A stretch of DNA of 64,000 nucleotides from Octopus vulgaris (Eukaryota): the NCBI GenBank assembly GCA_951406725.2, contig OX597823.1, positions 42,966,001-43,030,000 of the forward strand. The letters run 5' to 3'. A program made the translations under genes and the position numbers. The notes under the pieces were generated by a model. That model made no database searches. It had not been told where the DNA came from and saw nothing but the letters and a program-made list of their open reading frames with translations. Positions 7,565 to 37,560 of this stretch are shown piece by piece. Position 1 is the stretch's first letter. Every line of letters begins with the position of its first letter.

Positions 7565-8199
7565 TAGAAGAAATGAGGTACTCAGAAGATCGGATGGTTT
7601 ATATCTACAGATATTTATTTATATATTACATTTTTTATATATATATCATATCACTTAGATCATTAGCGCTTTCTCCCTATTCTAGTGGGGTTTTCAAATC
7701 AAACTAAGTTCCTGTGTGGGGAATTTTGATCATTTATATAAAATGATTTTTAAATGGTAAGGACAAATAAGGAGAGAAGTGTGTAACTGACGATAAATAA
7801 TTAAATGGTTGGTTTAATATACAGTGGTAGTGAGCGTGGATGAGCGGTAACATTTATGAAGGTTAGGAGGTAAAAAGCGCGCTGGAGTTTTAATTACATG
7901 TATTTTGAGAATAGGTTTGATTCTTCCATGCGGCAACATGTACATCATTGCGCAAAGTAACCTTCAATTTAATCAAGATATCCTTTGACCTGAAGAGTAT
8001 CCGACGGTATACACTTTGCTAAGGTTTTTTTTACCATACCGTAGCATTTGTATATATATATATATATATTTATATATATAATCGATTGTGCGGGTACATG
8101 TGTATGCGTATGTGTATAACTATATAATGCCAATCAGCCATGACCGTCACTTGCAAATGTGTATATGATGGAGCGTATCATATTTTGGTTAAATGTTTT

Positions 8200-11100
8200 T
8201 GTTGCCTATATAGATGTGAGAAAACATAGATACCTTCAAGACTAACCTACTCATTGAATTCTTTTGAAATTTCTAAAACATTAGCAAACTATTTTATAAC
8301 ATTTAGAAATTAAGAAACCTTGTAGATTAAAGAGTTTATGGCAATTTCCTTCATAGAAAATATAGAATCTCTTTAGATTAATGAGGATTTTAAAGACATT
8401 CTTCATTTGGAAAGGAACCGACTCTTTTTTGGAACCGAAAATTTGATTTGAAGTAAGGAAATGACGAGTATTTCGAAGTTTGATGTTCTGATTATGATAT
8501 CTTTGTGGCTTTATGTTTACTGGCTTTGAGTAGATGATCCATGCAGCAGAAAAACATCTCAAGTTTGATAGAATTTATGACAAGATGAGATGATATTTTT
8601 CAAAAGCATGTATTACAAAAGCAGAAGGATATTAGATAAGGGATGATCAAGTTCAGGTTCGCTATATACTTCCCGAGTCACATAACGGATTTATTTCAGA
8701 ATATGAGGCAACGTACTTTATTGGAAATGACATCTACATAATATATCCAAGTTATTGTGGATACAGACTTGGCCCACTTCGAGCAGATGACATTTCTTTA
8801 GAGATGTGACAAATCAAACTACGGCAGGTTTAAGGTACAAGAAGCTTTTCTTAGGTTCGCCGAACGCAGCTATACGTATAGGTAAGAGATTATTGAGTTA
8901 TTCATATACAACTGGAAAGAATACGACAGTTTTCTGGTGAACTGCAGGACGCAAATACATATCATAAGTACCAGTATGGAAAAATTTTACAAAGAGGCCC
9001 GGGAAAAATACTAGAGCTGTGTCCAATTCCATTCTTCTCCAGCTAAAGCTACCATATTCTCAAAGTGAGAGCATACCGGAAGACATTAAATATATCAAAA
9101 CAATTCGAAGGGTTTACATCTTGTTTTGTTCCAGCCCTAAACAATCAGATTTACTCTAAAATCACATAAGGTTCTTTTAGTTCAAAGGCATGTCATAAAC
9201 GAGATGGTCTGACGAACTTCAAAGTATTAAACCTTTAGCATCTCAACTTACTTATGTTAACATTACAAGATCATGATATGGCAAGAGTATATATTGAATC
9301 AAGCATTCCTAAAGAAATTGATTTAGATAATATTTGGAATTATGTTGGTGTAAAAGCCAGAAAAGCCCATTTCATTTACAGCTTAGGCTTATCGTTGCTT
9401 TCTGTAAAGATTGTTGTTATTTAGGCGTTCCGGTGAGAAAGGAATAAAGCGTTTATGAAAGTTTGCAGAGGTTTAACCTGAGATACACCGCCATGTTCAA
9501 TTAGGCTTTCATATTCATTCGCCAAAATCGGTCTCCTTTGTTCTTGTTTTATCATAACCACATTTTGCTATAAAGAAGCGAAACAATTACAACTTTAAAA
9601 TATACAATCTGTATTGAAAAGATTGAAGAATTAAGAGCCATGAAGCTAAGGAGCCAGTGTTAGATCTTAAGAAGAAAACTCTTCCATGGGTTTGGAAGGT
9701 AATCGAACGGTGGATGACAAAACAACAGCTGATATTTTACAAAATTTCTTCTCTAAGGTTTGTGTACACAGAGCCAGAGACTGAACTCTTTAACTGATTT
9801 CTTTACAATTTTAAAATCAATTTTTACTGTTCTCTTATCAATGTCTTCGCCCCCTTTTTGCACAGTTTCTGTATATCTACAATGTCTTTCCATTGTGATG
9901 AGCCAAAGTTTAATATTGCCAGCGTCGGTTTAGAATTTCAACCTTGTGCAATCAACATGCTTTCTAAAACAGGATCACTATTTATATTTTCCCTCTTAAA
10001 AAATAAAAGAATCTTGAGTAATCGAAAATTACGCTCTCCAATTCCTGCTGTTTCCTATTTGAGGAAGAAAATCTCATTAAGATAAAGATTGCTGCCAGAA
10101 GTTGGTTTCCATTTAGGCAGAAGTTATATTTCCAATAATAACTTTCGTAATTTTTCTCCACGAAAGAATGTATGAAACAAAGGGAAACTATGCATAAATT
10201 TTGAGCTCGTATTTTATTTTATAAAAGGAGCAAATATCGAAATGAATGACATTAATATTCTGACTCTAGATGATGCTTCAGAAAGAATATCAATAAGGAA
10301 GCGATACGTACCGTGGTAAAATATCTAGTAAACTTGTGAAAGCATTAAACGCTGAGAAAGAGACGAAACTAAATCCCGTAATACTTTTTGTGCCGAGGTT
10401 CTATGTTGCAAGCGCTTAAACCATTCCATTACCATCTTGAAGAGATTACAACGGACAGCTGCAGTGTTGGTTGACATCTGTGCTTCGTCACGGATTTTAT
10501 TCAGTCCATACATTATATTCATGATGAATGGCGTTCACAGCTATTACGGAAGCTGCCAACATTTCTCCGGAAACCGTTTAGCCTAACATAAATAGCACAT
10601 GTATTCGATTGTCGATTTCTAAGCAGAAATAGATGTAAGAGCAATAATGTAACTACATCGTTAAATAAGATTTTACTAATGCAATCGAATCAAGAATAAA
10701 AATGGATTATATGCAAAAGCAGAAAGGCTAGTCATCTCATTTGTCTTGGTGTAAACTGACACTGGATCGGATGAGACTGATTACTACACCATCACCAGAT
10801 CATCTGACAAGGAAAAGGCCAATAACATTAAACAATGGTGAGGGTGTAATGGAAGATACAAAGTAGACAAATGTTTTATCTCTGAATCAAGTACGTTATT
10901 TTTCTTTTTTACGTATTATTTCGAGAAAAAGGGAGCGTGACCAAACTTTTTTTAGTACTTCCCAGAAAACCCGGATGTAATGTGATTGATGTGTAGCTTA
11001 AACTTTTGTATGGAGATGACAGTTATGCAAAAGGCAGTAGAGAATTATTGCCAGATATTTGAAGTTGCTTGTGAAAAAGATTAGAATGCAGATTTCAGTT

Positions 11101-12350
11101 AGAGGTTCTATATAAAAGACAGAGTTAATCAGAAGCAGGAACGTATGAGAATCTAATGATACCTTACTCGAAGAAAGCACAAAAATTTATTCGCAGTTGT
11201 TAATATCTTGACGGTATACAAAATATACGTGGGTTGTGCGTTGGTGGTTAAGGATTCCCCAAATCAGTTAGGTAGTGTTTGGACATTTTCTTTAAAATCT
11301 TGTCCTTACGTGTGTAATTCAGTCTTCTAGAAGTGCAATCTCGGTCCCATACATATTAACAATCTTCCACTTTGCTTTATATAAAGACACCGGTCATTTA
11401 TATGAAGTAATGACTAGCTCGTAGAAGACAGTGCAGTCTTTGATTTATTGTATCGGCCGTAAGACGGATATTCCGTTATTATAAGAGATTATCACACGTA
11501 TTATGAAAGTGATCATTTGTAAAGACTCAGAATGATTATTTTGAAGCTTAAATTTGATCAGAATCAGTAAGTTTCAGGAGTCATCAAGAAAGAATGTGCA
11601 CCACTTTGGAGCCTTTACTGCACCCCTTCCCCCATCACTGATGTAAGGCCCGCACCTGCTAGTTCGATTTAATAGTATTCGACCTCAAGTCCATTTTAGG
11701 CTCCTCTCTTCTCCAAATAGGTTTCATCACACCTTTTAGTTATATCCGCCGCCTGGATCTCTTTCAAGATTTTATTTGCATGATGATGTTAAGCGCAGCC
11801 ACCGTCTCACTCTGGTTCCAGTACATTCACTTTCTATGGGAAGGTGTGCTGCACTCTAACCAGCGTCTATTCAGACTTCTTGTAGTATCTCATATTTGTC
11901 TTTCCTGACATGAATGTATCTACCCCGTTGCCATTGACTTGTACTTTTTTCTATCAACTCCAAATTAGGAAAGCAAATTAAAAACCTCGGCAGGTTTTTA
12001 ATCCAAATGGCCAGAACAAACGCTAAAATACATTCTTTCGCTTGCTCTACCAACTCTGTCAGTTTGCCGCCTTTTATATGTTAGTAATCATCGATATATT
12101 ATTGATATATTTATCTCCATTCCTAAATAACAGGTTTCTTGTCTAAAACGGTTCAACGTTTGATTTGCAGGTTTGTCCGGGTCATTAGCATGGCGGCTAT
12201 CATTAACTCCAAAATTAGCAATTTTATGGAGTTAATCATTCTTGAAGTTTGTAAAGAATAATTAGCGCGGGTGAAATTTGGCCAGGATCAGTTTCGTTGG
12301 AAAACACCGCTAAAGAATTATGAAACTAAAGTATTATTTAGATTCGTCTT
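8200..12350 (+). pseudogene. Putative endogenous narnavirus-like RNA virus element (decayed RdRp); boundaries approximate
   Basis: Repeat-free coding-like block with scattered stops. Collinear remnants: LQALKPFHYHL..SCSVG/LTSVLRHGF (10403-10500), motif A-like FTAITEAANISPE (10534-10572), motif B-like GEGVMEDTK*TNVLSL (10837-10885), motif C LYGDDSYA (11006-11029), RMQIS (~11085), YLDGI (~11205). Confidence 0.5.
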
Positions 12351-12921
12351 ACAAGGTGGAGAGCTGGCACAAAACCTAAGAAATATAGAAATAGTTCATA
12401 CACATGGTGTGGTGGTAATTTAGTGGCTAGTTATTGCAAAGGAAATATTCATTTCTAGCTTAATCTGCCTGGATTAGAAGTTCGAATCTTAAATCGAGGA
12501 AGAAGGTAGAAAACGCATATACTATACATATTTTATTTTCATATTCTTACTCATTACATTTCTTACTCATCTAGAAATCACTCGAAGACGACATCACTGT
12601 TATAATACAGAAAACTGTTTCTTGATCACAATAAGACGTACGTTAAAACGGTTCAGTCAATAGGTCATAAAATCATGACTGATCTGGCTCCACAGGCTGA
12701 CCCTTATATGCAACTATAGTCATTAATAAAACGATTCGCTAAAGAATTTCCGGCTGTACGTTTCTTTAGCTGCTGTAAACCTGAATTGGTTTATAAATGT
12801 AATATAACTTCATGAAGTGAACTCTTCATGGTGTCAAGCAATAATAACGCATCGGTTGAATGCTATGCAATATGGCTTGACCGATTTTCACTGAATTTTT
12901 ACATTCAGTTGCGCATGTATA

Positions 12922-22349: not shown

Positions 22350-25300
22350 ATACTAGCAGAGTTAGAAGAATACCTGTAGTTCATCAGGATAAAATTTCTT
22401 AATATGATAATGAGCGTAGTGTTTTTTTTATATTTTTTTATATTTATTTGATATAAAATAGGTTTAGTGGACACTGACGAATCATTTCACTAGGGAAATG
22501 CTTTGTTTACATGTTACGAAGATCATTTTCTCTAATATTTCCGTTCCAATGCCTGTGTGTAAATTTACAGTATATAGTGTTTATTATTAATTCACTGATA
22601 ATTTAATTATCACTAATCCTATGACTTGTTTACAGTATATAGTGTTTGTTATCAGTTCGACTGATACTTTTAGTCATTCGTATTCTCATAACTTATTTAC
22701 GGTATATAGGCTTTGTTATCCATACACTGATACTCTTTCTTCTGCTCCGGAGAATGAAGCAGACAGAAGGCGACTGTTAGCCAGAGAAAGACAAAGGCGA
22801 AGAACAGCCAGTCTCACTCAGGAAGAACTGGACGCAAGAAGATTAAAAAAATAGATTGAAAAGTATATTTTTGAATCAGTCACAAGAAATGAGACAAGAG
22901 AGAAGAATACATGATGCAAGACGACAGGCTCTAAGCCGTGAAAATGAAAATGAGAACCCCATCGCACAAAGAAGATATCCAAAAACAGAGAACAACACAA
23001 AAGTGCCAGGATAAAACAGAACAGCAAACAACAGAGAGGAAGAGCAAGCAGCAGAGATGAGAGAAGATCTAAGAATGAGAGTATTGCAGAGGCGACGAGT
23101 TGAACCGGGAAAGCAAGTATCAAAACGGAAAGAAATCGAAAGAGCGAGAACATCGCAAAAGCGCCAAAGTAAAACGGGAGAGCAAGCAGCATAGAGGAGA
23201 GATGGTCTAAGAGAGAGAGAGGGGGGAGAGGAGGGAGAGACTAAGACTTGAGAATGAAACTGAAGAAGAAGCAAATGAGGCGAAGAATCGAAGAAAAATT
23301 AAAACTGAAACAGAAGAACAAAGACGTAATCGAAGGCAGCGGAATGCGAATACCATGAGAGTTTTGCGAAGAGTTGGAAATCATGTAAATTTAGTGAATA
23401 ATCATACTTATAAAGAAGAGAATTCTCCAGTTAATAACTGTGGTGACATGAATACATTGTGTCAGTTTTGTAGAGCCAAACATTTTGCTTCAGAGCGACT
23501 ATCAGGCGGATGATTTAACAGTTGCTGCTACGGAAACTCTTGCCTCCACTTAGAAGAGACTTTCCTCCATACTTACGATCTCTGTTGTCAGACACTCAGC
23601 ATCCACATTATGTTAACTTGAAGGAAAACATAAGGTCATACAACTCTGCTCAAACTTTCACATCTATGGGTGCTCACATTGATGACCCACAAGGACGAGG
23701 TCCTTTCTGCTTCAGAGGTCATGACCAAGTTTATCACAGGTCTTCGCACAAACAATTTGCGCAAATGTATGTTGTTGACAGATGTACACTTGAGGTGATG
23801 CACAGATTTGATGAGATTATCAGAGCGAACAATGTCTATGCTGAATCTTACAGGACACCACGAGAAGTAGAAGTGCACGAGGAACAGCATCCTCAACAGG
23901 AACAGAGGCCTATGTCTGTCGTAAATTTAGTTTTCAACACTGCTGATAGGTGGAAACACAATTTACCATCAGCTAATGAAATAGATATCGTCTTCAGCAA
24001 TACTGACAGCAAGCCACTATTCAACAGAGATTTCAAATTTACCCAAGAAACAATGAAGTCCATGTTATCAGTTTGAACATTCTTAGCTCCGACCTCGACC
24101 CAATGACGTATATATTTTCCATATGGAGAGCCAGGATGGCAACCACATATGGTTGGTAATAAAAATAGAGCAAACTCAAAGCAAACTGTTACATTGTTCC
24201 AACATACAATATCTCTTACAGCAGTTAGAGATGGTGAAGTCGAAGGTAACAATATAGATTTTGTGAAGAATCATCAACACAGGTTAAAAGTAGAACAATA
24301 CCATGATCTTGTTGATCAGTTACAGAATGCTGCTAATTCTGCAAATGCTCGAGTAGGACGCAGAGTTATCTTGCCTTCATAATTCTCTTTGGAATATGCA
24401 TGAGCGCTATCAAGACGTCATAGCTATTGTGCGCATAGATAATCCTACTGGTATCTTCCTCACAATAACCGGCAATCCTAATTGGCAAGAAATTAGAGAG
24501 AATTTACTTCCAGGCCAAACTTCATCACATAGACTGGATTTGATTGGCCGTGTATGGAGTATAAAGCTGCACGAAATCTTGAATGACATCACTAAAAACA
24601 TATATTTGGAAGAGTCCTTGCTTGCTGCCACACCATTGAGTTTCAAAAGAGGGGCTCACCACATGTCCACCTGTTGATCATTTTGCACCCTGATGATAAA
24701 TTGGATGATCCAGAAAGAATTGATTAAATTGTCTGTGCCGAGATCCTTGATCCCGTCACTGAACCCTTACTACATGAAACAGTGAAAAGGTGTATGATTC
24801 ATGGGCCCCGTATTGATCTCAACCCTGCTGCTCTCTGCATGGAAAATAAAAAGGGCCTTAAAGAATTTCCAAACGAGTATCCACAACACACACGGATAAA
24901 CCCAAACGGTTACTCGTTGTACAGGCGACGTCGAGGGACAATAACTCGTGTTCGCAACCACGCAATAAAAACCGATATGTAGTGCACTGCAATGAGTATC
25001 TGTTACGTAAGTTCAATGCTCATATTTGTGTTGAGATTTGCCTCTTCATCTTCTCTGTAGTTCTTAGTGGTTGGAAATGGAATCCTCACTAACAATGAAG
25101 GGTTGGGAGAAAATCTCATATAAATTTCCCAAAACATGGTATCTACAAATAACATTTTTAAAAAAGTTTTTGGGGAAGACTTATTACTAGACAATGATGA
25201 GGCAATTGAAAAAGTGTCATCGAAAATCATTTCAATACCTAAAAACAAAGATTCTCTTCACATAAACAGACATAATATCATTATTGGCTAGTGAGGCAAC

Positions 25301-29836: not shown

Positions 29837-32800
29837 TCACAGGCGAAACCTGAGAACTGGTCCATTTATACAAGCCAGTCTCGCACAATTCACCCACCTT
29901 TCATAAAACTTGCTATCGGACAGCACTTTCCTCTCTAACCTCATCTTCCTTTTCAAGTGAAACTTGAAAAAGTTGATGAGGCCTTGACCAAAGAGGAAAG
30001 TGTCTGTCTTTAGCCCTTTCAAACGAGTCCACCACACGACCTCTTTCGCCACAGCCACTAGGCACAAGAAAACGGCCTCGCCCTCCTTGTTAAAGGAGGT
30101 CGGCGGGGCAATCTTCACTATGGATTCGGCCGATAGTTGGATCCGTCCTATACGTGACAGTAGCTGTTCGACATAAACCCATATTTCAGCAATACTCGGG
30201 CACTGGACGAGTGCGTGCAGAACAGTTTCGTCGTCCTGGCAACACCTCGGGCAGGCCCGGCTGACGGCACTTCCGTGCCGGTAGAGTTTATCTCGAACAG
30301 GCAGAGCCCCTCGGTAGCACTGCCAGGCGAGAGACCTCTGGAAATTATCCATCGGCCCCGGCCCGAAAGTCCTCCCGAACAGACCGCTCAGTTCGTCGTC
30401 TTCAACGCCTAGAGTTTCCCCGAGAACGTCGTCGCATTTTTCCTCCACTAACCCTCTATAGAACGCTAGAGTGGAGCTGTAACCGACCGCATTGCCCGCC
30501 TGGTGGAGGGCGGAGAGGGCTTGACGGCACTCGAGGTGCCAAGCGCCCTTTCTCGGTCTACGTTTGATCCAGGTCTGCAGCTCCGTCAAAGAGACGAGCT
30601 GCGGAAAATCGCGTCTGACAAAAGACGACCACACCTGTTCACCGTCTAGGAAGCGCTTGAGATGCCGCAGCCTGAGCGCATGTCTGCGCAACAGCAACCA
30701 CGGCATTCCAAGGCCTCCGTTCAGCGGTCGTTGACAGCAGATGGATCGCCTGACCAGTGGCACCTGACCCTTCCACAAAAAGTCGAAGAGCAGACGTACC
30801 AGCTTGGCCAACCAGCGGTCGGGATAGGGACGACGGTCAAGCGGTAATAGATGACGGATGCGATGTACGCATTCGCCACCTCCGCTCGACCATTCAGGGA
30901 CAGCTTCCTCTCGGCCCATTTCTGGGTGAGACGTGCCACCCTGCTCGTCACCTCTTCCCAGTTCTTATCCACCTGGAGGTCCGGACCGAACCAGACCCCG
31001 AGCAGTTTAACGGGTCCGTCTGTCCAGCGCCCTACGACGCTGTTGGACGGCATGGGCTTGCCTCTCCAGGTGCCCAGTTGCAAGCCCACAGACTTTTCCG
31101 CGTTAATCTTTGCCCCTCTCACCGCTTCGTACTGGTTTAGCGTCTCGCCAATCAGGCAAATGTGCCTGTGGCTCGACACCACCACGGTGACGTCGTCGGC
31201 ATAAGCAGACACGCTGTTTCCGCCTCCTAGATCGCGCGGGATACCCCTCAAAGCCTCCAACTTGCGCAGTAATGGCTCGAGAGTCAAAATGTACAAGAGG
31301 GAGGAGAGAGGGCATCCTTGGCGGACCGAACGCGAGATGTCGAACGGTTCCGAAAGGTGACCGTTCACCCGTATCACTGAGCAGATGTTGCTGTATAAAG
31401 CAGCGATCCACCCGCGGAAGACTGGACCGAAGCCGGCTGCCCTGAGGACAGCTGCCAGGTACCGATGGTCGACCCTATCGAAGGCTTTACTCTGATCCAA
31501 GTTGATCAAAGCCCCACCCGCGCCAGCGTCGTTACCCACCCTCTCTATGATGTAGCGCATGAGATGGAGGTTGTCGTGTATCGACCTGGTCGGCACGGCG
31601 CATGTCTGCGTCTCGCCGACCAGCTTATCCACGACAAGCGCCAATCTCTTGGCTAGCACCTTGGCCAAAATCTTCAACTCTGCATTGAGCAGAGTGATGG
31701 GCCGGAAATTCCCTATAACGTCCCCCTTGTTTGGGTCCTTCTTTAGCAAAGCCACCACCCCTCGACAGACAAAAGCAGGAATTCTCCCGTTTTGCTGCCA
31801 GTTGCAGTAGACGTTTGCCAACAGGTCCGCAAACAAGTCTGGCATTGAAAAGTAAAGCTCGTAGGGCAGACCATCCAAACCCGGCGATCTACCTCTCGTG
31901 CAACTCTTCATCGCTTCCTGTACTTCCCAGGCAGATATCGGTCCTTCGCAGCACTCTGCCTCGCTGTCCGAGAGTTGCGGCAGTCCGTCCAGGTACACAC
32001 CGAAGTCTGTACCGTTGGTGTCCGTTCCACCGCTCGTCCCAAACAGTTGAGCAAACTGCCGCTGAAGCACCGTACACATCTGCTTCGGTTGGGTAACCTC
32101 GCGCCCGTTCTGGTCCACCAAAGACCGAATGGTTGCTCTGTTGCCTCGCTTCGCCTCCGCCACGCGGGCCCATCGAGCGGCTCTAGTCCCCTCCCCGCTT
32201 AGCGAACGTGCCTTAGCTCTGACAACGCAGCCTTCGTGTTTGGCGTCGAAGTGTTGGTCGAGGGCCAACCTTGCCGCCAACACGTCGGTCGCGATGCCAG
32301 TGTCAAGAGCCTCGTCTAGTTTCTTAACTAAATCCCGCTCTCTCTTCCTACGTTCAATAGCTAGAGTCTTACTATACCTAATCGACTCTACTCTAATTGC
32401 TCTCTTGAGGGCAAACCACCAGTTGTTGTTGATGATTGCCCCCGTGAGCGCCCGCTTAACTAGTAAACTAATCCGGTCTCTGTAAGCTTTGCACGCCGTT
32501 AACGACGCGTTCAGCTTCCAGTAGCCGGGTCCCTGTCTATGTAGCCTATCTAAGTCGACCGTACAGATCACTAATTTGTGGTCCGTATATTCGACTAGGT
32601 GGAATTGTGGACACCCTACGCTGTCCTTATCCGCTGGCCTACAAAACACTCTATCTAAGTACGATCTAGACGACCCGATGCGGTTTGTCCAAGTCCACAT
32701 TGGCACATTCGGGTTGTCTAGTCGAAACCTGTCGGACAGCTGAAAGCGGCCGAGTAGGTTGGCGAGGCTCTTGCACCCTCCCCCTCTCCTATCAGACGCT

Positions 32801-33232
32801 CCCCTGCCCACCCGATCGAAACGTTCGTCTAAGACAGCGTTCCAATCCCCAACTAGTACTAGAGTGCGTGACGTTCCCAGGAAAACTTCCAGACGTTTGA
32901 AATAATCCGACTGCCCTGCTCCTGTCGGAGCGTAGGCAGCCAGCAGTCTGAAAGCACCGCCGTCACTACCGTCGACGTCGAGGACCACCAACTTACCTTC
33001 CGGATCCAAGAAGACTGTCCTTATTTTCAGGTCCAGGCCCTTCCGAAACAACACCGCAGTACCACCACCGCCCGCTCCCGGCCGACACGGAGATAGAAAT
33101 ATCTCGTATCCGCCGAAAAAGGGCTGCGAGTACATCCACATCATGAAACCTCAGGTCGTTTAACAGGTGACCCTGTTTCCAAGGTGACCCGAGGCCTCTC
33201 ACATTCAAGCAACCGATTCTAAGATTTGCCAT
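29837..33232 (-). pseudogene. LINE ORF2 (APE endonuclease, reverse transcriptase, C-terminal zinc finger); two frameshifts
   Basis: CLNVRGL, LVGDWN, YLDRVF, TDHK, SPGLDG, FRPITLLN, DQSKAFDRV, QGCPLS, YADD and CPRC..ETVLHALVQC. Shifts at ~33130 and ~30825. Confidence 0.93.
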
Positions 33233-33271
33233 GTTTCAAAAGTTAGGGGAAAAAAAAGGAGAAAAAAGGCT

Positions 33272-35154
33272 CTACTTACTGTTGTTGGTGGTGGGGGTGG
33301 CTCCCTTGTGCTTTTGCACGAGTGCTTCAATAATATTTTTGTAAAGTTTCTTCGAGAAACTTTTCCTTAACGATCCCACATCGTTAGGGAATATTTGTTT
33401 TATTTCGTTGTAAACTGTTTTGTTTATTTTTATTGTGAGAATGTGTGCTGGTGGTGTGTTGTGTGTAGGTATTATGAAATCTGTAATATTTGTGCTTGTT
33501 TTGTTTTTCAAATACTCAACCAGTTTTTGGTTTCTTGTATTCACTGCTGTAATCGTGTCTGTAATTGTGTCTGTGTTTGTTTGTGTCTGTGGTAGTGGCA
33601 GTAGTGGTGTCGAAAGTGTTGTTGTTGTTGTTGTTTGTTGTTGTGAGTGTGTGTTGTTGTTGATGTTGTTGTTGATGTTGGGAAGTACTATTTGTTCGTG
33701 TTTCCCCTGTAAATCTTTTTGTTTTTTCCTCCTTTTCTTTTTTGGAGGCACTATGTTCCATTCTCCTTTGTTGGAATCAGAGCTCGCACAATCCGAGATC
33801 TCTTCATCCGGCAAAGGAATGGTTGAGGGGTCTGCTTCAGTAGCAGGACGAAAAGTTTTTGGTTCCACCGGTATCGGTGGTGCCGCTGCTCCTGTTACTG
33901 TTGATGTCGCTGCTGTCGACCTTCGAGGTACTGGTGTCGGTGTTGGTTTGGTGGTGGTTGTCGGTGTTGGTTTGGTGGTGGTTGTTGTTGTTGGAGGTGG
34001 TGTTGTTCGTCTTGGTGCTGGTGTTGGTGATGGTGTTGGTGGTGTGGCAGCCTTTGGTGTTTCTTGCTGTTTTTGTTGTTTCTGTTGTTGTTGCTTGTGT
34101 TGTTGTTGTTGTTGTTGTTGTTGTTGCTGCCTCTTGCTATACTCCTCCATTCTCTTTTTTTGAATGGGGCAGTCCCTTTTCAGGTGGCTTTCGCTACTGC
34201 AGAGGAAACATTTTGGCTTTCGCCCCTCTACAGTAACATTTAGCCTGGTCCCATCCAGTAAGATGACAAAGTCAGGTATGGCATTGATGTTTTCCTGCTG
34301 GATCTGTACCAGCAGTTGAATACCCATGCCTGACCAGTTCTTTTCTCGTACCCTCCGAACATTCAGAATAGTGGCAGTGTCCTCTATGCCATAGAGGACA
34401 GCCGCCACTAGCCATGAGATTTTCTGTTCGGGGGGTATTGTGCTTATAGTTATTTTTTGTACCTTACGCCCGAGGTACGTCGGGACGAGGAACAAATGTT
34501 CATTTTGCAAGGGCGAAATGGCGTTCGCCCTTGCAAGCTCCTCTGTTGGGAAGCGAACCTCCACGGTTCCAAATCGCTTCCCTCTTGTCACATAGCTCTT
34601 CTGGCCCCAAATGGGCTTCAGAGCCATCTCTAACTGTTGTGGTGTGGCGTTAAACAATCTTTTAGTTTTCTTTTCGAAAACTTTATAAAAGATTGTTCTT
34701 TTGTTTGTCTCTTGTGTGAGTTGTTGAGGTGTGTTGAGGAAAACACTGTTTCCCTCCTTTCTCAACAAATCTTGTGCCATTTTTATGTCCTCCATTGTTA
34801 TTTCTACATCTTCCGAAATTTGCTTCGCAGCAGAAGCAAAATCGTTAGAGACTTTTACATTTTTTTGTTGGTTCTTGTCTGTGTTTGTGTCTGTTATAAG
34901 TTTCTTTTCCTCCCCCTTCGGTACAGCATCACTTGTTGAAGGCAGAGGGGGAAATCAAGAGTGACGTCGAACGCGACGTCCTGACTAGCATTCTCCTTTC
35001 GAACGGTGCGCGTGCTTTCCGTTTCGGAAGGAGGAGCTCTGTTGCCTTTTACGGCTTGAAATGGGTTGTACGTAACCCGTGACGTTGTTTTTTGTTCTTG
35101 TGGAGGGGGTGTTGTAAGAAGGAGGGAAGAGCCAGCAGCTCGTTTTAAAGCCAT
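33272..35154 (-). pseudogene. LINE ORF1 (gag-like, CCHC zinc knuckle); one frameshift near 34950
   Basis: CFLCSSESHLKRDC knuckle and Q/T/P-rich tail. The upstream MALKR ORF joins the 507-aa ORF if one base is added at the G-run near 34948-34952. Confidence 0.8.
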
Positions 35155-36859: not shown

Positions 36860-37560
36860 TTCCTCACAGTACTTCATTGTAGACAATATTTTGTGTGTAT
36901 GTCACACCACGTTTTGGCTTTGTCTGTTATCCCAACTGAGTGTCATAACTCTTACTTTGATATTGTTCATAGCCCATGCTCTTGAAAATGCGACATATAA
37001 TTGGCCGTGAGAAAATACCGGTTGAGACAAATGTATTCCAATCTTTTCAAATGTTTGTCCTTGAGCCTTATTAATTGTCATTGAATATGCAAGTCGAATT
37101 GGAAGCTGAAGTCTGTTTAGTGTGAATGGCATATTTGCATCACTTGGCCTATGTTTGATTCTGGGAATTAGAACTGTACGATCTCTGTTGGAGCCTGTTA
37201 CCAATGATGCCTCTACACAATGTTCATGAAGTCTTTGCACTTTCATGCGAGTTCCATTACATAATCCTTGACTGATCGAAAAATGTCTTAGCAGTATTAC
37301 AATAGTCCCTACTTTGAAGTTTAGGCGATGAGGAGGCATACCGGAGGGAGTGAGTTTATGAATTCAAATGGATAGTTCTGAACCTCCTCTTCATTAATGG
37401 AGGACACTGAATCTGTGCTTAAGTATGTTTTAAGTGCCTCTGCTATAATATTAAGAACTTTTTCATTTATTGCAAGACAGTTAGAATTTATAGGAGATAA
37501 AATTACTCGCTTTTCCACTTCTTCTGGCATGCATGCAATGTTGAAAATTTCTGGGTACAA
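36860..37560 (-). mobile_element. Helitron PIF1-like helicase C-terminal fragment
   Basis: YPFEFINSL/MPPHRLNFKVG..GLCNGTR..IPRI..QLPIRLAYSMTINKAQGQT..FSHGQLYVAFSR, with one frameshift. Confidence 0.9.

Follow-up and report, generated by a model that had tools for sequence, protein, structure and literature searches.

The block at 8200-12350 of a 64,000-nt stretch of DNA, the window of this analysis (G000:C10:42966001-43030000, in an assembly of 2.8 Gb and 227 contigs), was read in an initial annotation as the fossil of a near-complete narnavirus-like genome, identified by the motifs of its RNA-dependent RNA polymerase (RdRp). We found that the block is a mosaic, with the end of a hAT DNA transposon on its left flank and dispersed repeats on its right. 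The whole mosaic is orthologous in organism E at about 7% divergence and is, therefore, old germline DNA. The polymerase-like motifs lie in a decayed middle part, 9650-11545, which is probably host debris too, i.e., worn mobile DNA of the host or motifs near the level of chance. Decayed DNA that can be assigned to no family and carries its motifs by chance could well be the whole explanation; an old reverse transcriptase (RT) of a long interspersed nuclear element (LINE), from a clade absent from our sampled set, is unlikely. A piece of a narna-like RdRp gene is the main rival, and we consider it somewhat unlikely. These grades are our own estimates and not computed posteriors.

We hypothesize that the mosaic grew by successive insertions, all of them earlier than the split from organism E, and that its pieces then would have decayed by substitutions and indels without any function. 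The chain of motifs may be what an eye tuned to palm domains picks out of six frames of decayed DNA. About 68 stretch-strands were scanned with many polymerase families in mind and many models were tried, so that a p of about 1e-3 per stretch is obtainable by such selection. Moreover, with 56,078 LINE RT candidates in the genome, the prior would favour host elements, and endogenous viral elements (EVEs) of narna-like viruses must presumably be rare.

Composition and age of the block

The initial annotation described the block as free of microsatellites and of short interspersed nuclear elements. No tandem array is located between 8081 and 12917, which agrees with the first half of that description, but the second half was not confirmed, as repeats occupy both sides. 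DNA searches of the genome returned at least 22 other places for 8100-10200 (20 over 9275-9632, one over 8175-8243 and one over 9099-9175) and at least 40 for 11400-12900 (24 over 11563-11909 and 16 over 12408-12558), both counts being lower bounds. A sensitive blastn search against the fetched loci widens the left element to 8784-9650. The segments are as follows:

8175..8243, no strand assigned: short old repeat at the left edge (one other genomic place at 84%; loose contig ends at 8175 and 8237)
8784..9650, + strand: hAT DNA-transposon remnant, transposase end and 3′ non-coding end (20 places, 66-78% identity)
about 9200-9390, + strand: hAT dimerisation region, within the 8784..9650 remnant
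9650..11545, + strand: single-copy decayed middle, holding all motifs of the initial annotation (self match only, 10200-11400)
11564..11922, no strand assigned: old dispersed repeat (24 other places, 65-81% identity)
11934..12068, no strand assigned: second old repeat piece (63.6% over 143 nt, E 5e-7; protein matches at E 5.6e-4 and 2.2e-3)
12402..12558, no strand assigned: third old repeat, just beyond the block (16 other places)

The left element has collinear DNA matches to five loci (L468, L473, L438, L431 and L436). Its assignment to the hAT superfamily goes via another copy, L466, which matches 9274-9378 by DNA and carries the hAT dimerisation domain (PF05699, E 9.9e-8); L437 shows the same domain at E 0.067, and the window's own hAT piece has no Pfam match to it. 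The element thus resembles the superfamily in matching many genomic copies, one of them with the dimerisation domain above the Pfam cut-off, and departs from it in that the window retains only a decayed, internally deleted end. On the right side, the genomic match of 11934-12068 adjoins an R4/Dong-like endonuclease remnant. We also considered 11564-11922 as the 3′ end of an RTE element, but the RTE C-terminal model failed on 11500-12450.

It follows from these flanks that a near-complete viral genome is excluded: hAT DNA takes up about 0.9 kb on the 5′ side, and the 3′ end consists of old repeats. The absence of microsatellites and the length of the block would fit a narnavirus-type genome integrated in one piece over 8200-12350; however, 8784-9650 and 11564-12068 are accounted for by the transposon and the dispersed repeats, which refutes the idea for the flanks and leaves it extremely improbable as a whole. 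Narnavirus genomes are 2.3-3.6 kb in size, and we found no long open reading frame (ORF) across such a length, at most 1.9 kb being left between the hAT DNA and the old repeats. Nor does the block read as one broken plus-strand ORF of 4 kb, as had been proposed. A weak plus-strand coding signature is confined to 9611-11564 (z 2.2, 0/60 shuffles, one of 16 tests; 5/60 on the minus strand), with none in 8200-9274 (42/60 shuffles), and the N-terminal and tail sub-models of the narna-like proteins were blank.

The middle has no other DNA copy in the genome searches, which covered 10200-11400 directly and the remainder within the flank searches. Its protein matches to the genome are at chance level, with no significant paralogue, and its best DNA match in 854 kb of fetched loci has an E of 0.014. 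Five weak genome matches (L458, L459 and L462-L464) were inspected as possible paralogues and rejected as chance. Two of these loci, L458 (G000:C31:4141471-4144677) and L459 (G000:C6:135541162-135544350), are near-copies of each other by translation over about 3 kb on different contigs, either a small segmental duplication or some other repeat.

Twenty of the 24 listed runs (10 studies, organisms A-E) contain the middle or part of it, and four runs were aligned to the block. No RNA run is listed among those that contain it, which has no bearing on expression. In organism B, a single contig of 4,873 nt spans 8087-12910 with 17 other letters, and in organism D the block is covered in short pieces. 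Each of two organism-E runs has one contig of 5,169 nt that aligns to 8099-12906 as four pieces; over 8099-11568 it differs by 239-241 letters and 52 gap letters (6.9%). Since single contigs of organisms B and E cross the middle and both flanks, and the window itself lies in a 118-Mb contig, the block is germline DNA and not contamination; the inheritance through the germline supposed at the outset is borne out by the orthologue in organism E. The mosaic would accordingly be older than the split from that organism. Organism E has, in addition, 176 other letters at 11568-11575 and lacks 39 bases at 11929-11969 and 33 at 12211-12245, from which it appears that the right-hand repeats changed after the split.

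Narna-like motifs and models in the middle

None of the standard searches gave a significant collinear RdRp match, an outcome that the initial annotation had named as refuting its interpretation, and the custom models described below came close to the same outcome. The queries were single-frame readings with X at stops. In Pfam, 12 long and 20 short readings matched no RdRp or RT family, and three unrelated matches appeared at E 0.04-0.2. The same screen missed 3/3 genuine narna-like RdRps and matched a LINE control at E 4e-34, so that the Pfam blank tells more strongly against an RT than against an RdRp. P0032, P0035 and L008:3-3704 are full-length narna-like RdRps without a Pfam match even at E 10, i.e., Pfam screens are blind to the narna-like group. 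The best match among PDB sequences is an unrelated protein at E 0.057. No match was obtained with phmmer against 1.84 billion representative proteins, in a collection of 5.8 billion proteins, among viral contigs or with HMMER on six frames using a 103-sequence narna profile. A search of the genome with PF05919 found no match, but its controls were equally silent, so it is uninformative. In Rfam, all matches were below the cut-off and due to repeats or chance, and scans with patterns derived from motif C of the window yielded 8, 97 and 1 stretches, none of them an RdRp.

All ten peptides quoted in the initial annotation are present at the positions given there, but they are split over two plus-strand frames. 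One frame holds AEKETK (10351), LTSVLRHGF (10471), FTAITEAANISPE (10534), GEGVMEDTK (10837), TNVLSL (10867) and RMQIS (11083), and the second holds LQALKPFHYHL (10406), SCSVG (10457), YGDD (11009-11020) and YLDGI (11204). Along the middle, we distinguish the following features:

9627..10316, + strand: frame of 230 codons interrupted by 3 stops, possibly worn coding DNA (stop depletion)
10351..10500, + strand: motif-F-like region, then H-x-L and R-H-G-F, with two frame changes (block models)
10600..10692, + strand: two motif-A candidates, at 10613 and 10669, of which 10669 also aligns to LINE RT domain 3
10837..11062, + strand: motif-B-like stretch and YGDD with A-x-G, holding nearly all the narna signal (B-C sub-model)
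11063..11275, + strand: RMQIS, TYENL and YLDGI region, either narna motifs D/E or RT domains 6-7 without frame change

The stop depletion of the first feature is equalled by 10/300 shuffles but by 104/538 genomic stretches. For the remaining features, ungapped motif blocks were built from 117 representatives. In the middle, the H block ranks first at 10430, A second at 10669, B first at 10849 and C first at 11012, and the distance from H to A, taking 10669 as motif A, is about 35 codons longer than natural. The GDD at 11012 scores 8.7 bits. The best place for motif B (M-G-[DE]-P-x-x-K-x-x-L) lies 54 codons before the GDD and reaches 2.7 of about 25 expected bits; the stretch has an internal stop and is missing the conserved G-x-P and K. 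For motif A (D-x4-[TS]-D), the warning that came with the initial annotation, namely that the aspartates are not preserved, was too strong. D-F-T-N-A-I-E at 10669 scores 8.0 bits, although its last residue is E and RT domain 3 fits there too, and a D-x5-D is found at 10613 in the third frame; no internal duplication accounts for both candidates. Motif F (E-P-G-x-K-x-R) scores 0.2 bits at 10354, outside the top four places. The tetrad YGDD occurs in 1/267 natural narna-like proteins, and Y-A-D-D is usual in LINE RTs of this genome. Altogether, the block scores at the places chosen by eye total about 38 bits versus about 140 for a typical member at 20% decay.

Whole-length models were made from 267 distinct natural narna-like RdRps, later joined by 33 more, and aligned with a frameshift-aware aligner using a codon-decay model; controls were up to 700 shuffles and 538 genomic stretch-strands. 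Local Viterbi alignment with the general profile, with 7 group profiles and with 199 single proteins did not score higher than shuffles, the best local piece of the general profile in the region being 11012-11097. The automatic block chain was equalled by 7/60 shuffles. Glocal Forward over the whole 4.4 kb peaks at 11254-11274 in 8/9 settings, yet 6-47 of 60 shuffles reach its score, and the best z among 181 single-protein Forward comparisons is 3.6. Limited to 9650-11545, the pan-narna model is reached by 1-28 of 500 shuffles across 12 settings, with better results at a higher frameshift rate; this interval was picked after repeat mapping, and the frameshift rate and the clade were also picked after looking. 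The groups differ: z is 6.1-6.4 for group 1, 3.2-3.4 for group 0 and at most 1.0 for groups 3, 4 and 6, and 2/7 groups had too few anchored members for modelling.

Three narna models gave 17.2, 13.7 and 11.6 bits, scores reached by 0, 1 and 4 of 700 shuffles and by 0, 0 and 2 of 538 genomic stretches, respectively. The fitted p is 4e-4, 3e-3 and 1e-2 per 1.9-kb stretch, so that a 64-kb window would be expected to hold 0.03, 0.2 and 0.7 such scores, uncorrected for the number of models tried. One chance genomic stretch obtained 14.9 bits on the best model. The signal comes from the B-C sub-model (z 5.1, 0/700 shuffles, 1/538 genomic stretches), the other four sub-models (N-terminal, F-A, D-E and tail) having z of -0.7 to -0.2, with -0.4 for F-A and -0.7 for D-E. 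Longer models lower z from 4.3 to 2.4, and two leads found by eye, an N-P-x-x-G tail and N-terminal extensions, were dropped because both lowered it. Pan-narna block chains have log2 Bayes factors of at most 0.5, and their scores are reached by between 8 and 355 of the 538 genomic stretches; group block chains are all negative, and the Bayes factor of the long F block is below 1 in 7/7 groups. In hhalign, the narna profile finds the GDD at E 0.043 with 1.2% probability and the RT profile finds domain 3 at E 0.4, with 0/6 comparisons above 1.2%. A match above chance is borderline. On the group-1 model, contigs from other narna groups that have not decayed reach 50-195 bits, versus 14-17 here; a strongly decayed distant member could fall to such a score, so that weakness alone would be no refutation.

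The viral alternative, which we rate as somewhat unlikely, derives the middle from a divergent RdRp gene of narna-like type, as an endogenous piece of about 600 codons that starts upstream of motif F and runs past motif E. On this view, part of a gene and not a genome would have been inserted before the split from organism E and decayed since. If it is viral, the likely route would be that a cytoplasmic viral RNA was copied by a host LINE reverse transcriptase, inserted in the germline and left to neutral decay. In glocal alignment, the frameshift models have their peak at 11258-11277, and only on the plus strand, and the clade model (B-C spacing of 43-59 aa) has the highest z, with the fitted p of 4e-4 mentioned above. 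The long F block peaks at 10501-10506 in 4/7 groups, and the distance from the motif-F K to R-H-G is 40 codons by eye, as in several group-4 proteins. The single-copy state and the weak plus-strand coding signature also count in its favour, and the Pfam blank is no argument against it. On the other hand, interval, frameshift rate and clade were all selected post hoc, three groups give next to no signal, two of seven are unmodelled, and the score of the chance stretch and the shortfall in block bits count against it as well. At least 7 frame changes would be needed besides the extra codons between H and A, and there is no close relative among the 267 + 33 natural proteins.

The best-scoring model comes from the clade of Beihai narna-like virus 21 and Blattella germanica narna-like virus 1. 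The middle resembles it in the motif order, the B-C distance of about 54 codons and the A-x-G after GDD, and differs from it in the YGDD context, the loss of invariant F and B residues and the longer H-to-A distance.

Reverse transcriptases and other polymerases

The GDD region is fitted nearly as well by LINE RT domains 5-7, which tempers the fact that narna models, at 14-17 bits, outscore those of every other family tested, with their peak where it would be expected. Models built from 11 different RTs of this genome peak at 11221-11243. Among nine sub-models, RTE domains 5-7 reach z 4.9 (0/400 shuffles) in one frame from YGDD to YLDG; rebuilt, the same sub-model gives z 3.9 (3/700 shuffles). 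RTE domain 2 has z 3.8 but at 10183, too far upstream. Like the RTE-clade LINE RTs (L618, L623, L630, L680, L683, L684 and L689), the middle has L-L-Y before DD, an equal DD to Y-L-x-G spacing without a change of frame and, at 10624-10692, a stretch resembling domain 3. Unlike them, it has no score for domains 1, 2 (at the right place) and 4 or for the C-terminal tail, and no RVT_1.

R4/Dong-like LINEs, whose copies in this genome have a YMDD-type RT, were tried and rejected, since the 8 sub-models of a three-copy model gave z of -0.8 to 2.2 and all had their peaks away from the GDD chain, while a held-out copy scored 39-163 bits as a control. This family is abundant in the genome, as R4/Dong-like copies occur in at least 4/40 random 10-kb stretches; L598, L600, L601, L615 and L698 are lightly decayed copies.

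Several results weigh against host debris. The top-scoring model overall is viral, at 17.2 bits and unmatched by any shuffle or genomic stretch, and a model from the later-fetched proteins also gave z 3.7-5.2, these proteins being mostly of the same clade, fetched by alignment including window pieces and so not fully independent. The ranked H, A, B and C blocks are collinear, with natural spacing between A and B (60 codons) and between B and C (54 codons). LINE models are lower overall than narna models (z 0.9-2.6). The RTE C-terminal tail gives z of -0.5 to 1.4, versus 40-120 bits for old RTE pieces in random stretches, no Pfam match to RVT_1 was found in the middle, and the middle is without relatives in a LINE-rich genome.

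The two palm families examined have their peaks at one and the same GDD, which would also suit another polymerase-bearing element, e.g., a Penelope-like element or another RNA-virus family with YGDD, a tetrad typical of picorna-like RdRps. Pfam has models for many such polymerase families, but no match was found in any frame or piece, and we regard this origin as very improbable. No copy of a Penelope RT was obtained from the fetched loci.

Host debris is still the interpretation we favour; under it, the middle is ordinary transposon debris, DNA of a familiar type. By eye, a chain of motifs could be traced for each of narna, RTE and R4/Dong, and the case is useful only as a warning that palm-domain chains of several families are readable in one decayed stretch.

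Known systems and other elements of the window

In insect assemblies, nine narnavirus-related EVEs were reported at E 5e-15 or better, with reciprocal best matches to narnaviruses (Dinan et al. 2020, PMC7010960). As described there, they share with the viral alternative an RdRp origin from a capsidless positive-strand RNA virus and a place in animal assemblies, and they served as evidence of the true host; the stretch in the window differs from them in having no significant standard match and in being heavily broken. One narna-like RdRp sequence was reported from a dinoflagellate genome (10.1101/2022.04.12.488082). A horseshoe-crab survey is reported to have interpreted its narna-like virus as fungal and to have found mostly chuvirus EVEs (PMC12282059), and the main text of an invertebrate virome preprint does not mention narna-like viruses (10.1101/2023.11.03.565523). 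The literature searched has no report of a narna EVE in a cephalopod or mollusc genome, a statement that covers articles and not their supplements, where such lists may stand.

If the middle were viral after all, which we doubt, it would be an ancient orthologous RdRp fragment of an unsampled narna-like lineage and, within the literature searched, the first such fossil in cephalopods (the host label given in the initial annotation). Capsidless Lenarviricota RNA would then have reached the germline of a marine invertebrate before the split from organism E. This bears on the question of whether narna-like viruses of marine invertebrates infect the animals or their fungi and protists, as raised by the insect and horseshoe-crab reports (PMC7010960, PMC12282059); an orthologous EVE would tie such a virus to a host and set a lower limit on its age. 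It would add to a type of EVE that, according to the insect report, is already known from insects (PMC7010960).

Elsewhere in the window, a young two-ORF LINE with a GC content of about 56% is located at 29837-34954 on the minus strand. Its ORF1 encodes 560 aa, and its ORF2 is divided between two frames that overlap (809 and 375 aa) and contain endonuclease, RVT_1 (E 3e-30) and zf-RVT domains; by its layout, we take it to be L1/Tx1-like. A Pif1 helicase tail (PF21530, E 1.3e-13) at 36902-37363 on the minus strand is probably a Helitron piece, and an open frame of 185 aa at 23519-24076 on the plus strand, with no Pfam match, has by eye the look of a Helitron Rep/helicase N-terminus.

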